The translations under genes were made by a program, and so were the position numbers. From contig CAIKWD010000018.1 in the NCBI GenBank assembly GCA_903831095.1, forward strand, positions 1-47,302: 47,302 nt of DNA, in the 5' to 3' direction. This DNA is from Candidatus Staskawiczbacteria bacterium. GTDB taxonomy: Bacteria > Patescibacteriota > Minisyncoccia > Minisyncoccales > Staskawiczbacteraceae. Shown here one piece after another: positions 27,772 through 31,593 of this stretch. The notes beneath the pieces were generated by a model. The model was not told the DNA's origin. It made no database searches and saw only the letters and a list, made by a program, of their open reading frames with translations. Each line of letters opens with the position of its first letter. The first letter of the stretch is position 1.

Positions 27772-27816
27772 CAAAAAAAGAAAGCGGGGGTGCCTTTCGG
27801 GCCTCGCTTTCTTTTC
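27772..27816 (-). terminator. Intrinsic terminator after trpB
   Basis: Minus strand: GAAAGCGaggcccgaaaggcaccccCGCTTTC followed by a T7 run. Confidence 0.7.
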
Positions 27817-27831
27817 CACAGCACATTTTTG

Positions 27832-29127
27832 CTATTTTATCTTACCTGCCATAAAATCGTCATATGCTGACATGTCAAAATGCCCATGCCCTGAAAGGTT
27901 AAACAAAATCACTTTTGCTTCTCCAGTTTCTTTGCATTTTAATGCCTCATCAATCGCGGCTTTTATGGCGTGTGAAGATTCAGGCGCTGGTATTATACCT
28001 TGATTTTTGGCAAACTTCACAGCCGCCTCAAAAACCTCAACCTGCTCATAAGCTCTTGCCTCAATTATTTTTTCATCAAGCAAAAGGCTTACAATTGGAG
28101 AAGACCCGTGATACCTCAAGCCTCCCGCATGTATTGGCGAAGGAATATAATCATGCCCCAATGTATGCATTTTCAAAAGCGGAGTAAAACCAGCTGTATC
28201 TCCCAAATCATATTCGTATTTTCCTTTTGTAAGAGATGGGCATGAAGCTGGCTCAACTGCTATGGCTCGCAAATTTGGCTTTGTACCATCTAGTTTATCT
28301 TTTAGGAATGGAAAGGCCAATCCGCCAAAGTTACTTCCTCCTCCATGACAAGCAATAACAATATCAGGATAATCTCCGGCAATTTTCATTTGCTTCTGAG
28401 CCTCCTGGCCTATTATTGTCTGGTGTAGCAAAACATGATTTAAAACAGACCCCAGGCAGTAATTTGTATCTTTTCTAGAAACCGCATCTTCAACTGCTTC
28501 GGAAATTGCAATTCCCAAACTTCCAGGATGATTTGTGTCTTCAGCCTGGTATTTCTGTCCGCTTTTTGTAAGATTGCTTGGGCTGGCCACAACATTTGCG
28601 CCAAACAATTTCATCATTATTTTCCTGTAAGGCTTGTGGTCATAGCTGGACTTTACCATGTAAACCATGGACTCCAATCCAAAATGCTGGCAGGCAAAAC
28701 TCATTGCCGAGCCCCACTGGCCTGCTCCGGTTTCCGTTGTCAGTCTTTTAATTCCTGCCAGTTTATTATAGTAAGCCTGAGGCAAAGCTGTATTTAACTT
28801 GTGACTTCCAACTGGACTTACTCCCTCATACTTGTAATAAATTTTAGCGGGAGTTCCAAGTTCTTTTTCCAAAGCCGCAGCCCTTATCAATGGACTTGGC
28901 CTGTAAAGGTAATAAGCTTTCCTGACTTCCTCGGGAATTTCTATGTATCTTTCCTGCGAAACTTCCTGCTTGATCAATTCCATTGGAAAAATAGCCGACA
29001 AGTCTTCTGGACCAATTGGCTTTTTTGTTCCAGGATGCAAAGGCGGATCCAATGGCTTTGGCAAATCTGGAATTATATTGTAATAATGCGTTGGTATTTC
29101 TTCTTGCGATAAATTTATAATAGGCAC
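27832..29127 (-). CDS. trpB: Tryptophan synthase beta-chain-like PLP enzyme (TrpB2 type)
   Basis: EEIPTHYYNIIPDLP N-terminus, PLP lysine motif VGSHKLNTA, GGGSNFGG. GTG start with no obvious Shine-Dalgarno sequence. No trpA adjacent. Confidence 0.85.
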   Translation of the reverse strand: MPIINLSQEEIPTHYYNIIPDLPKPLDPPLHPGTKKPIGPEDLSAIFPMELIKQEVSQERYIEIPEEVRKAYYLYRPSPLIRAAALEKELGTPAKIYYKYEGVSPVGSHKLNTALPQAYYNKLAGIKRLTTETGAGQWGSAMSFACQHFGLESMVYMVKSSYDHKPYRKIMMKLFGANVVASPSNLTKSGQKYQAEDTNHPGSLGIAISEAVEDAVSRKDTNYCLGSVLNHVLLHQTIIGQEAQKQMKIAGDYPDIVIACHGGGSNFGGLAFPFLKDKLDGTKPNLRAIAVEPASCPSLTKGKYEYDLGDTAGFTPLLKMHTLGHDYIPSPIHAGGLRYHGSSPIVSLLLDEKIIEARAYEQVEVFEAAVKFAKNQGIIPAPESSHAIKAAIDEALKCKETGEAKVILFNLSGHGHFDMSAYDDFMAGKIK

Positions 29128-29241
29128 GGTCTTGTGAGCGAGGCGAACAAGATTGCTTCGGCCCCGCTGAGCGGGGACGCGGAAATACTTTGTTCTATCG
29201 CGGTTAATTTTTATTAATATATTTGTATTTAAAACCGCCAG
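29128..29241 (-). ncRNA. Unassigned GC-rich structured leader upstream of trpB
   Basis: Minus-strand helices: GCGGTT/AACCGC, CCCCGC-tca-GCGGGG, CGAA/TTCG and CTTGT/ACAAG. The local G+C is clearly above that of the surrounding DNA. There is no start codon in the trpB frame upstream of the GTG. Confidence 0.4.
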
Positions 29242-29367
29242 AATTCTGTTCCTTTATTTTTAATTATAAATTTTATTTTTTTATTTGTTTGCATAATATT
29301 TTAAAAAGATTTGTGTGACACAAAGGCAAAACCTCTGTGCCACACATATATTATTTTATCCTCCCAA

Positions 29368-29520
29368 TTAATTATTGAAAAATCCGTTATTTCTTTTTTT
29401 CCCAGAAACAGAATCGCTTTTCCCAGTAAAAAAGTTAAATCCAGATTTTTTAGGAAAAACCGGCACAACTTTTTTAGTGCTTTTCCCGTTCTGTGATGAT
29501 TTTTCATTTTTCTTTGCCAT
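29368..29520 (-). CDS. Unlisted small basic ORF (50 aa) downstream of the T-box terminator
   Basis: AAGGAGAG lies 6 nt before the ATG. Translation: MAKKNEKSSQNGKSTKKVVPVFPKKSGFNFFTGKSDSVSGKKRNNGFFNN. Confidence 0.35.
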   Translation of the reverse strand: MAKKNEKSSQNGKSTKKVVPVFPKKSGFNFFTGKSDSVSGKKRNNGFFNN

Positions 29521-29557
29521 GACACTCTCTCCTTATTAAGTTTTAAATTTTCTAAAC

Positions 29558-29830
29558 AAAAAACCCCGTCCACTGGGCATAACTAAATTATGCGCAAAGG
29601 ACGAGGAATTAACTCGCGGTACCACCTTTGATCCCGTCAAAATGCTTTATATTTTGTCGGACTCTTTCATCGACTTTTTATTATCGATTATCCTATGGTT
29701 ACGGAGGATGCCGGACTCTCACTTATGCAAGAGCCACCTCATCAAGCCCACCCCTTCAACCTTGGGAGTTGAAGGACCTGAATCAACGGTTTTGTAATTT
29801 TTAGGGAACACTATGCAAAGCCAAATATAC
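29558..29830 (-). promoter_or_regulatory. T-box-type tRNA-sensing leader (antiterminator/terminator switch)
   Basis: Minus strand AAAGGUGGUACCGCG (29612-29626) matches the T-box consensus. The antiterminator GACGGGA...UCCUCGUC competes with the terminator CCUCGUCC...GGACGGGG plus a U6 run (29558-29606). An AGUGAGAGUC (AG-box-like) element lies upstream. Leader length is about 270 nt from the predicted transcription start. Confidence 0.7.
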
Positions 29831-29833
29831 CTT

Positions 29834-29861
29834 ATATTACCACAACCTAACCCTATGTCAA
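29834..29861 (-). promoter_or_regulatory. Sigma70-type promoter of the T-box leader
   Basis: Minus strand: TTGACA, 16 nt, TAATAT. Confidence 0.65.
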
Positions 29862-29869
29862 TATTAAAT

Positions 29870-29899
29870 AAAAAATCTCCCAACAATTAAGTTGAGAGA
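29870..29899 (-). terminator. Intrinsic terminator of hisI
   Basis: Minus strand reads TCTCTCAACttaattGTTGGGAGAtttttt. Confidence 0.75.
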
Positions 29900-29907
29900 T
29901 ATATATT

Positions 29908-30264
29908 TTATGAGACATTGTGCCAAAAACAACTTCTTTTACCTGTGTGACATGCAACTCCATTTCCTTTAACCCTAACGCCAATTAAAACAGAGTCACA
30001 GTCACAATCTAAATATTGGGAAACTACTTCCATTTCGTTTCCCGACGTAGCTCCCTTCCGCCACAACTCATCTCTGTTTGTAGACCAAAAATGAACTATA
30101 TTTGTTTTCTGGGTTTTATCCCAGGCAATCTGGTCCATAAAACCCTGCATTAAAACCTCTTCGGTTTCTTCGTCTACAATTATCACAATTATGCAATTTA
30201 ACTCTTTTCTTTCTCCGCTCTTTTTGGAAACATAAACCAGCGTCTTTCTAAAATCGGGCATCAT
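29908..30264 (-). CDS. hisI: Phosphoribosyl-AMP cyclohydrolase
   Basis: WSTNRDELWRKGATSGNEMEVV...DCDCDSVLIGV...GVACHTGKRSCF. Confidence 0.88.
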   Translation of the reverse strand: MMPDFRKTLVYVSKKSGERKELNCIIVIIVDEETEEVLMQGFMDQIAWDKTQKTNIVHFWSTNRDELWRKGATSGNEMEVVSQYLDCDCDSVLIGVRVKGNGVACHTGKRSCFWHNVS

Positions 30265-31172
30265 AATACACCTCTTTCTTTTGGTTGTGACATTACTAAT
30301 GAAATTTCCCGGTTAACAATAATGTCAGTCACTTTAATTTTGAGAAGTTCAAAAATAATTTTCTGTTCTTCTTCCAGCAACACAACAGATTGAAGAGCAA
30401 ACCATCCTGGTAGTTCTAAAGGAAAAACTGACGGCGATTTAAGACCTCCCATAATTTTTATCGCTTCGTCGGCCGACCTTTCTGGAACATTAGCTGTAAT
30501 CATTACATATTTAGAAGCTAGAAAGGCTCCATTAATTAATTGTACAAAACAATTTATATAAGGCTTTTTAGCTTCGTCTGCAAGCGATTCTGGATTTGCC
30601 ACAATAACAAGGTTTGACTCCATTATCTCATAAATAATTTCAAGCCCATGTTCCCTCAAAGAATCACCGCTTTCAGTAATGTCCACAATGCCCGAGGCGC
30701 CAAATTTTACTTTGCTCTCAGTATTTCCGTAGGACCGTACCACGCGAATATCGGGCCTTCCCTGCTCTGCAAAAAACCTCTGCGCCAACTCCACATATTC
30801 TGTAGCAATCTCGCAATTTTGCGGAAGGTCTTCAATCTTCTTAAAGCCGCTTTCTTTGCTTGTAGCTAGTACGATTTTAACTGCCTTGGTCCCCGCACGG
30901 CCAACTGGCAACTTCAGTAAAATTGGAAATTTATATCCCCAATTTGTAATCCAATCATAGCCCACTATAGCAACATCAAAATGACCCTGCTTTAAGTAAT
31001 ACGGAATTTCCTGCGGACGCTGGAAGGCAATTCTCTTTATCCAGTCAACATTCACTGTGCCTTCTTTTATCCTTTTCTTTGGAAGAGTAACTGGAATGCC
31101 CGCCTTTGCAAAAAGTCCCATTACAACTTCCTGCATTGACCCATCTGGAACCACAACGTCAATCTGACTCAT
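30261..31172 (-). CDS. hisG: ATP phosphoribosyltransferase (long form)
   Basis: PDGSMQE..LF.KAGI, EIPYYLKQGHFDVAIVGYDW, GIVDITESGDSLREHGL, and a C-terminal regulatory-domain-length extension. AGGAGG Shine-Dalgarno sequence. Confidence 0.8.
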   Translation of the reverse strand: MSQIDVVVPDGSMQEVVMGLFAKAGIPVTLPKKRIKEGTVNVDWIKRIAFQRPQEIPYYLKQGHFDVAIVGYDWITNWGYKFPILLKLPVGRAGTKAVKIVLATSKESGFKKIEDLPQNCEIATEYVELAQRFFAEQGRPDIRVVRSYGNTESKVKFGASGIVDITESGDSLREHGLEIIYEIMESNLVIVANPESLADEAKKPYINCFVQLINGAFLASKYVMITANVPERSADEAIKIMGGLKSPSVFPLELPGWFALQSVVLLEEEQKIIFELLKIKVTDIIVNREISLVMSQPKERGVL

Positions 31173-31278: not shown

Positions 31279-31593
31279 TCAAACCTTTCTTGAAAGAGAA
31301 AGATTTTTATGATGATTTATTCTTTTCAGCATCAGCTTATACCCACCCGCTCCGACATTTAACCATTTTGAAATTCTAGCTACAGTTCTTGAACTTAATC
31401 CAGTTTCCTTAACTATTTTCTCATAGGAAATATTTTTGTCCAACATTTGTGCTGCTTGCCACCTTTTGCCAAATTCTATAATTTCTTCAGAAGTAAGCAA
31501 ATCACGTAAAAACATTTTTGTTTCCTTTATATTTTTAAGTTTGAGTATAACCTTAAACAAATTTTCAGTTGTTTTATTATTCCAATTTTTCAT
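31279..31593 (-). CDS. TrpR-related YerC/YecD-family DNA-binding protein
   Basis: LLTSEEIIEFGKRWQAAQML..ISYEKIVKETGLSSRTVARISKWL is the Trp-repressor-like HTH pattern. Confidence 0.75.
   Translation of the reverse strand: MKNWNNKTTENLFKVILKLKNIKETKMFLRDLLTSEEIIEFGKRWQAAQMLDKNISYEKIVKETGLSSRTVARISKWLNVGAGGYKLMLKRINHHKNLSLSRKV

Follow-up and report, generated by a model that had tools for sequence, protein, structure and literature searches.

Does a leader with an exact T-box sequence work as a tRNA-sensing switch in a member of the Patescibacteria, which tRNA does it read, and which gene does it control when the first open reading frame (ORF) behind it encodes only 50 amino acids (aa)? These questions are raised by a leader of about 266 nt, with its promoter and terminator, on the minus strand (29558-29861) of a 47,302-nt stretch of Candidatus Staskawiczbacteria DNA. 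This stretch (contig C18, hereafter the window) belongs to an 806-kb genome, 97% complete, from a lake-water metagenome. A sequence-only reading had recognized a T-box whose antiterminator and terminator exclude each other, in a lineage unusual for T-boxes, and a covariance-model (CM) match together with covariation among homologues bore this out. The leader is very probably a real T-box for tRNA-Trp. The best explanation of the locus, and in our judgment a likely one, is a functional transcription-attenuating tRNA-Trp T-box with a unit that reaches trpB2.

Anatomy and covariation of a truncated T-box leader

A genome-wide search with the Rfam T-box model RF00230 found one T-box in the host genome (E 1.3e-10 per genome). 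In a 1-kb search, the match covered 29594-29795 on the minus strand and the whole model (positions 1-219), and scored 50.5 bits with E 6.7e-10. Scanned with Rfam defaults, the window returned only a tRNA; the T-box emerges when E-value thresholds are used instead. Upstream of the match lies a sigma-70-type promoter (29834..29861, minus strand) with a -35 box TTGACA (29861-29856), a 16-nt spacer and an extended -10 element TGgTAATAT, in which TG stands before the hexamer TAATAT at 29839-29834. The start would then be near 29827. This promoter, already proposed from the sequence, has 10/12 matches and is the best promoter-like site within 28800-30300. Homologous loci carry TTGACA / TGnTAnnAT promoters at equal distance from the leader.

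The RF00230 alignment and covariation define a truncated Stem I (29737..29789, minus strand). At its base is a kink-turn (K-turn) of canonical geometry with strands at 29789-29783 and 29741-29737, formed by a C-stem (C29789-G29737 and C29788-G29738), a 3-nt bulge GUU and tandem G.A/A.G pairs; UGA is invariant in 24 aligned leaders. The lower helix UCAGG/CUUGA follows, then a 5-nt 3' bulge GUGGG, and finally an uninterrupted 9-bp upper helix closed by the 7-nt loop UCCCAAG, so that 32 nt stand for 76 model positions. The distal Stem I platform, an AG bulge and distal loop forming interdigitated T-loops, is not present in this leader. Among homologues, the upper part ranges from absent (L002) to an insert of about 90 nt (L016) and has no conserved sequence. 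In L002, which lacks the upper helix, the specifier sits in the apical loop UAAAUGGG. Upper Stem I is plain or missing, and no platform that binds the tRNA elbow can form.

Another form of the Stem I base was also seen. In L017, L018, L024, L025 and L026, the K-turn 3' strand UGAG is swapped for a hairpin insert, UUCGCCC...GGGCAAG, and the base becomes a three-way junction. The same insert occurs in many of the loci L044-L162, and this form is commoner outside the genus of the window.

Downstream of Stem I, the helix GGCUCU/AGAGUC (29714..29735, minus strand) matches the model's Stem II. Its loop UGC-NNNA-GUG is conserved, yet differs from the canonical GAA/AGUA S-turn. The element AGUGAGAGUC, noted earlier as resembling the Stem I AG box, is in fact the 3' half of this Stem II. 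The Stem IIA/B pseudoknot comes next (29691..29713, minus strand), with IIA CGG/CCG at 29713-29702 and a loop UCCU that pairs with AGGA at 29694-29691; IIA is invariant among the 24 leaders. A linker helix AUCGAU/GUCGAU (29688-29669, minus strand), varying as AUCG/CGAU, ACUG/CAGU and AGUUG/CAAC among homologues, leads to Stem III (29660-29634, minus strand), which the RF00230 model aligned between the purine-rich flanks GAUGAAAGAG ... AUCAAAGG.

The antiterminator (29597..29628, minus strand) consists of helix A1 AAGG/CCUU, the 7-nt bulge UGGUACC and helix A2 GCGAG/CUCGU with a terminal G.U. It reads AAGG[UGGUACC]GCGAG...CUCGUCCUU from 29628 to 29597, so both the UGGNACC bulge and the terminal G.U of T-boxes are in place. 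The exact T-box sequence GGUGGUACCGCG is present as had been read, at 29626-29615 (minus strand). Alone, the antiterminator folds at -8.6 kcal/mol. The intrinsic terminator (29558..29606, minus strand), built from CCUCGUCC/GGACGGGG with an inner GCAUAA/UUAUGC helix and a U6 run at 29563-29558, was likewise confirmed and folds at -23.3 kcal/mol (z -6.2). The strand CUCGUCC is the 3' side of the antiterminator and the 5' side of the terminator, which makes the two helices mutually exclusive. The earlier proposal of an antiterminator that excludes the terminator therefore stands, but its helix GACGGGA/UCCUCGUC was mis-assigned: such a pairing can be drawn, yet GACGGG forms the 3' strand of Stem III, and the helices that are conserved, aligned by the CM and counted for covariation are A1 and A2. 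In nearly all loci, a hairpin with U6-U8 behind it makes up the alternative helix. The downstream Shine-Dalgarno (SD) sequence (29534-29527) lies 24 nt past the U-run, and the fold leaves it unpaired. With a terminator hairpin present and the SD free, the leader does not have the SD sequestration of a class II translational switch.

Covariation was assessed in an alignment of 24 homologous leaders from the same family, with the structure written from the CM alignment and our own reading. The leader fold left 92.6% of cells paired, and 16 pairs showed changes on both sides; 0/500 shuffles were as good, and slid controls reached 42-55% paired. Changes were spread over the whole fold. The closing pair of the K-turn went from C-G to U-A in 6 sequences, compensatory changes affected 3/5 pairs of lower Stem I and 5/6 pairs of Stem II (97.9% of cells paired), and the IIB pseudoknot had one compensatory pair, U-A to C-G, in L002 and L011. 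In the antiterminator, an A1 pair changed from G-C to A-U in 11 sequences, and the first A2 pair was G.U in 21/24. The terminator was 94.9% paired with 7 doubly changed pairs, and 0-1 of 500 shuffles did as well. The linker helix was misaligned by MAFFT, which leaves its pair counts unusable. Homologues thus kept the T-box sequence and both alternative helices, and the CM match was significant, so that neither of the two outcomes named as refuting the sequence-only reading came about.

Specifier, cognate tRNA and proposed switch

The specifier UGG (29750-29748) and a 3' purine, G29747, lie on the minus strand, immediately on top of the lower helix of Stem I. UGGGC is invariant in 24/24 aligned leaders; its final C is paired, and apart from the 3' bulge with UGGG, no unpaired part of Stem I is conserved. 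Across the phylum, UGGR occupies the specifier site in 118/119 loci. The invariant UGG followed by G identifies tRNA-Trp as the ligand.

The bulge that would meet the tRNA end agrees with this assignment. From its UGGU, a tRNA with discriminator A73 had been predicted. This did not hold: the single tRNA-Trp(CCA) of the host genome (contig C11 5034-5105) carries G73, as do the tRNA-Trp genes of five relatives (six genomes in all), and the host tRNA-Tyr carries A73. The variable bulge position can pair with G73 as wobble when it is U and as Watson-Crick when it is C. UGGC and UGGU occur 53:53 across 119 Patescibacteria species, and G027 combines a UGGC T-box with a tRNA-Trp of G73. A pyrimidine at this position fits G73 and excludes A73, and therefore the switch reads tRNA-Trp. 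As a side observation on the tRNA set, ARAGORN called a tRNA whose anticodon loop has 8 nt and whose anticodon, 'gcaa' (CUGCAAAA), has four bases; it lies outside the window, on contig C8:1585-1658 of the host genome (G000), which also has a normal tRNA-Cys(GCA).

From these features, we infer tRNA binding and read-through as follows. Transcription would start at about 29827, and the nascent leader would form the K-turn-based Stem I with UGG-G in its 3' bulge, to which tRNA-Trp would pair through its anticodon CCA. As in actinobacterial ileS T-boxes, the helix of codon and anticodon is presumably clamped by Stem II together with the IIA/B pseudoknot. When the tRNA is uncharged, its G73-C-C-A end would pair with the bulge UGGU and stabilize the weak antiterminator against the strong terminator, allowing RNA polymerase to read on. 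Charged tRNA-Trp would make no such pairing, and transcription would stop at the U6 run (29563-29558).

The unit behind the leader and its reach

The first enzyme gene behind the T-box is trpB2 (27832..29127, minus strand). It encodes a 431-aa stand-alone TrpB-like pyridoxal phosphate enzyme (NF009057, 736 bits) and has a GTG start and no SD. Among 79 species genomes of the Candidatus Staskawiczbacteria family, trpB2 is found in 2, both times right after the T-box, and among 401 sampled genomes of the phylum in 5. The other of these two genomes, G017, has on its contig C19 (L005 / L032) the T-box, a leader ORF, trpB2 and a tRNA-Trp gene with no zinc-ribbon ORF (described below) in between; the sensed tRNA-Trp is encoded about 110 nt after trpB2. 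At L164 and L165, in two Patescibacteria genomes distant from each other, the T-box (or upstream region) and trpB2 are separated by a protein of about 130 aa with an LDGHHR motif, judged by eye alone to be ParB/Srx-like.

In the window, the small ORF is the first thing between T-box and trpB2. As had been read from the sequence, it precedes trpB2 and has a good ribosome-binding site: the SD AAGGAGAG at 29534-29527 stands 6 nt before the ATG of the 50-aa ORF MAKKNEKSSQNGK...GFFNN (29520-29368, minus strand). A 16-bp intercistronic hairpin follows (29312..29346, minus strand; -25.3 kcal/mol), and then AAAUCUUUUUA. The second structured element that had been noted before trpB2 proved to be two different things, a Trp-codon leader ORF and a copy of a repeated cassette.

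The leader ORF (29229..29294, minus strand) has 21 codons, MQTNKKIKFIIKNKGTEFWRF*, ends in ...KNKGTEFWRF and contains a single Trp codon at 29240-29238. We found such an ORF in twelve loci from several Patescibacteria lineages, one of them GC-richer, always 14-105 nt before a trpB that is TrpB2 or TrpB1-like. A Trp-codon ORF upstream of a trp gene, one trait of a leader-peptide attenuator, is thus present in all twelve. The consensus is aromatic-aromatic-K-N-K/R-x-x-E-F/Y-W-R, and the Trp codon is invariant. Codons vary synonymously or conservatively (Arg CGU/CGA/CGC/CGG; basic AAA/AGG/AGA/CGT/CGG; F/Y UUU/UUC/UAU/UAC), and therefore the ORF is evidently translated. Conservation of the peptide beyond its Trp codon may point to sequence-specific ribosome stalling by an arrest peptide, not codon counting. 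Hairpins were seen near the ORF in L165, with a U-run 3' of the ORF, and in L057, spanning the stop codon. Most of these loci have a 14-43-nt AU-rich spacer before trpB, and in the window the spacer is the leader cassette. The trpB genes lack an SD in the AT-rich loci examined, and the GC-richer L165 has GAAGGAA.

The cassette copy in the window (29128..29205, minus strand) is promoter-less, ends in ...UCUUGU-UCGCCUCGCUC-ACAAGA-CC and adjoins the GTG start of trpB2. The genome holds five copies, each closing with a 6-bp stem around an 11-nt loop, then CC and the GTG start, in front of dnaK, rplJ, rplT, a gene for a basic protein and trpB2, none with an SD. The other copies are at G000 C6:20937, C12 (minus strand), C26:68941 and C26 (minus strand). 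Four copies share one and the same 33-nt core; the stem of the fifth carries two compensatory changes. In the window, CCCCGCUCAGCGGGGC replaces the promoter-like TTGGGC...TATAAT middle of the four sister copies.

The unit ends at a terminator that we read from the sequence, GAAAGCG...CGCUUUC with U7 (27773..27811, minus strand); a pattern scan misses the 27811-27773 hairpin because its loop exceeds 8 nt. After it comes the tyrS promoter motif TGGTATTAT (27763-27755, minus strand). In relatives, the motif AAAUUGGUAUUAUU / AAAUUGCUAUUAUU likewise precedes tyrS after their own terminators and is conserved across the genus. We considered tyrS as the regulated gene, which the terminator and its own promoter rule out, and tyrS as a disguised tryptophanyl-tRNA synthetase (TrpRS), which was rejected since a normal trpS (374 bits) is present and this tyrS is the only one.

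The 50-aa ORF occupies the position that a zinc-ribbon micro-protein gene has in relatives. This protein (52-95 aa, CxxC...HNFCP...CxxCK) is the commonest gene after the T-box of the family. It is found in 19/79 genomes; 16/18 solid matches are in T-box genomes, less than 2 kb from the T-box. Its genes lie just 3' of the T-box in L003, L004, L008-L010, L014, L015, L018, L021, L022, L024 and L026, and in relatives the gene is followed by a hairpin with U7-8, the conserved promoter motif and tyrS. The host genome has no zinc-ribbon homologue anywhere. DNA homology of the 50-aa ORF to L024, L008 and L018 extends over the SD and about 7 codons only, and the ORF is cysteine-free. Its candidacy as a diverged zinc-ribbon protein failed, with a profile score of -0.5 bits that 1193/1998 shuffles matched. 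We therefore call the ORF a positional remnant, most likely a decayed place-holder of the zinc-ribbon gene.

Other mini-proteins with CxxC and a G-W/F-G motif take the same position in L057, L063, L075, L092 and L126. The AlphaFold model of the zinc-ribbon protein (predicted local distance difference test, pLDDT, 81.6) had no Foldseek match better than E 0.6 in the PDB. A stand-alone gene for the TrpR-like YerC/YecD is present in the window (31279-31593, minus strand) and lies 1-3 kb from the T-box in 6/7 genomes with both. A general model in which the zinc-ribbon protein is an anti-repressor of YerC/YecD was rejected: YerC occurs in 13/30 T-box and 25/49 non-T-box genomes, and its absence from 9/18 zinc-ribbon genomes counts against an anti-YerC role. 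Genome-wide, the presence of YerC/YecD was uncorrelated with the T-box or the zinc-ribbon gene.

Based on this arrangement, the controlled unit would run from about 29827 to about 27773 and contain the orphan ORF, the U-poor hairpin, the leader ORF, the promoter-less cassette and trpB2. Trp starvation would turn on salvage of indole to Trp through trpB2, which would stand under two Trp-dependent layers, the T-box and the leader ORF. The dependence of trpB2 on the T-box we regard as fairly probable. Gene order elsewhere is in keeping with such a unit: in the five loci L057, L063, L075, L092 and L126, the T-box, a zinc-ribbon ORF, a U-poor hairpin, the leader ORF and trpB2 (often with trpS next) follow one another.

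Several observations count against a functional switch that reaches trpB2. The RF00230 score of 50.5 bits is below the Rfam gathering score of 93, which we attribute to the missing distal half of Stem I (32 nt for 76 model positions). The platform that is regarded as essential for transcriptional T-boxes (PMC7583486) is missing here. The bulge-discriminator pair of the host genome is a wobble, U.G73. The hairpin at 29346-29312 is stable, has a U5 run 5 nt after the stem and may stop a good share of transcripts, and two promoter-like sites with 9/12 matches lie between the T-box and trpB2. Among 5.8 billion proteins, the 50-aa ORF has no homologue but itself (16 contigs). Finally, the sequencing runs that contain the locus are lake-water DNA only, with no RNA runs among them. 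Contigs of four lake-water DNA runs confirmed the locus sequence at low depth, and these same runs also hold related T-box fragments from other strains.

The intercistronic hairpin is central to another explanation, in which the T-box controls the 50-aa ORF only, the hairpin terminates, and trpB2 is expressed from its own weak promoter, with the leader ORF as its only regulator. In 11 relatives, the T-box unit is indeed monocistronic, with the zinc-ribbon gene, a strong terminator and the tyrS promoter. The window hairpin is very stable and scored terminator-like; its U-run, however, stands 5 nt off the stem, unlike the clear terminators here (T-box, hisI, post-trpB2 and post-zinc-ribbon), and in the equivalent hairpins of five other lineages the U-tract is absent or weak. 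Promoter-like sites with 9/12 matches are available at 29381-29353 and 29321-29293, but a start from the latter would fall inside the leader ORF, and the promoter-like part is gone from the cassette before trpB2. In G017, moreover, the leader ORF and trpB2 come straight after the same T-box. We consider this explanation unlikely.

Much less plausible still is an evolutionary relic, a T-box whose zinc-ribbon cargo has decayed and which regulates nothing useful. The 50-aa ORF, with no cysteines, profile similarity or homologues, would suit a relic, as would a genome devoid of zinc-ribbon homologues. The leader itself, in contrast, shows no decay: all positions invariant in the 24-leader alignment are intact, the promoter is consensus-grade, all helices pair, and trpB2 lies downstream as in G017 and other lineages. 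A ligand other than tRNA-Trp, such as tRNA-Tyr, whose A73 pairs perfectly with UGGU and whose synthetase gene tyrS comes after the unit in this genome and about ten relatives, can practically be dismissed, since Stem I has no UAC/UAU anywhere and an invariant UGG, the UGGC of half of the class cannot pair with A73, tyrS stands behind a terminator with its own conserved promoter, and cargo elsewhere is trpS, trpB and TrpD-like genes. A functional tRNA-Trp T-box with a unit reaching trpB2 is thus retained.

A compact T-box class in Patescibacteria

Homologous leaders are present in 30/79 family genomes, one each save one genome with two. None of these 31 matches reaches the RF00230 threshold, and the best scores 73.1 bits. 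The 25-nt pseudoknot core CGGNUUCCYCCGUAAYCAURGGAUA was found in 119 species, nearly all labelled Patescibacteria. Phylum-wide, the downstream genes encode TrpB2, TrpRS, a TrpD-like protein, a GCS2-like ligase and a few other recurrent products. The compact T-box class extends across Patescibacteria. Our literature search returned no paper linking T-boxes with Patescibacteria, the candidate phyla radiation (CPR) or Parcubacteria, and within the searchable literature the class seems not to have been described. Cargo at the loci L044-L162 included a GCS2-like carboxylate-amine ligase of about 250 aa (11 loci), a TrpD-like Glycos_transf_3 protein (8), an unknown 280-aa protein (3), a PPDK_N-domain protein, a radical SAM/SPASM protein and an Asp/Glu racemase.

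The class shares most of its parts with the class I T-boxes of Firmicutes (RF00230): promoter, K-turn Stem I, specifier plus purine, Stem II, IIA/B, Stem III, UGGNACC bulge, terminal G.U of A2, competing terminator and Trp cargo. It differs in that Firmicutes class I T-boxes have the distal Stem I platform, whereas here upper Stem I is plain, variable or missing. In addition, the specifier here lies in a one-sided 5-nt bulge with no GAA/S-turn and with G, not A, as the 3' purine; scores are 28-73 bits against a cut-off of 93; and the hosts are Patescibacteria with genomes of 0.5-1 Mb and a single T-box each.

Transcriptional T-boxes generally require a long Stem I with the platform, which lets them capture the tRNA fast (PMC7583486, section 6.2), and an intermediate or ultrashort Stem I is typical of translational, mostly actinobacterial T-boxes, whose control is slower (PMC7583486). 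In the ileS T-boxes of the latter (Sherwood et al. 2015), the K-turn, Stem II and pseudoknot are essential for tRNA binding (PMC7583486). The Patescibacteria leaders resemble them in a Stem I truncated above the specifier, or with the specifier apical as in L002, and in keeping the K-turn, Stem II and the IIA/B pseudoknot. Actinobacterial ileS leaders, however, sequester the SD to control translation and are specific for Ile, whereas here a covarying terminator with a U-run leaves the SD free, and specificity (Trp), phylum and cargo are different. TBDB ran its truncated-Stem-I model genome-wide on Actinobacteria only; elsewhere, that model was run only on sequences that the class I (Rfam) model had picked up.

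The leader ORF can be compared with trpL of E. coli and actinobacterial trp leaders, in which a Trp-codon ORF also lies just 5' of a Trp gene; in L165, a hairpin with a U-run stands between. In contrast to the trpL type, there is one Trp codon here instead of a run, ten flanking residues are conserved, the distance from Trp codon to stop is 2-19 codons, and most loci have no recognizable terminator/antiterminator set. In the AT-rich loci, trpB lacks an SD, and the ORF stands in series with a T-box.

The locus also brings to mind the anti-TRAP operon of Bacillus subtilis (PMC10327191). This at (rtpA-ycbK) operon combines a Trp T-box, a Trp-codon leader peptide and the small zinc-binding protein anti-TRAP. 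Common to both are a tRNA-Trp T-box with a zinc-binding protein of about 50 aa (in relatives of the window) and a short Trp-codon ORF nearby. Unlike in that operon, it is trpB and not the zinc gene that the leader ORF stands before, and the ORF's single Trp codon is surrounded by conserved peptide sequence; in the window, the zinc gene is replaced by the cysteine-free orphan ORF. No similarity between the zinc-ribbon protein and anti-TRAP was found in sequence (Pfam) or fold (Foldseek against the PDB, no match better than E 0.6). A more far-reaching picture would make the T-box and the arrest-peptide-like leader ORF a two-tier Trp sensor, within a Patescibacteria class of its own that dispenses with the elbow platform and has the zinc-ribbon protein as its main, trans-acting output in sisters, the gene for it having decayed in the window. 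We offer it tentatively, as possible rather than probable.

Herein, a truncated Stem I backed by covariation and coupled to a terminator challenges the rule that transcriptional T-boxes need a long Stem I. At about 200 nt, it provides a minimal transcriptional T-box for work on mechanism and engineering. The Rfam threshold misses the class, which means that riboswitch censuses under-count regulation in CPR bacteria. The single-Trp leader peptide before an SD-less trpB is a new candidate for a ribosome-based sensor. The sole T-box kept in these 0.5-1 Mb genomes is Trp-specific, and its cargo of trpB2 salvage, zinc-ribbon, and ligase-like and TrpD-like genes hints at how auxotrophic, host-dependent cells meet Trp shortage.

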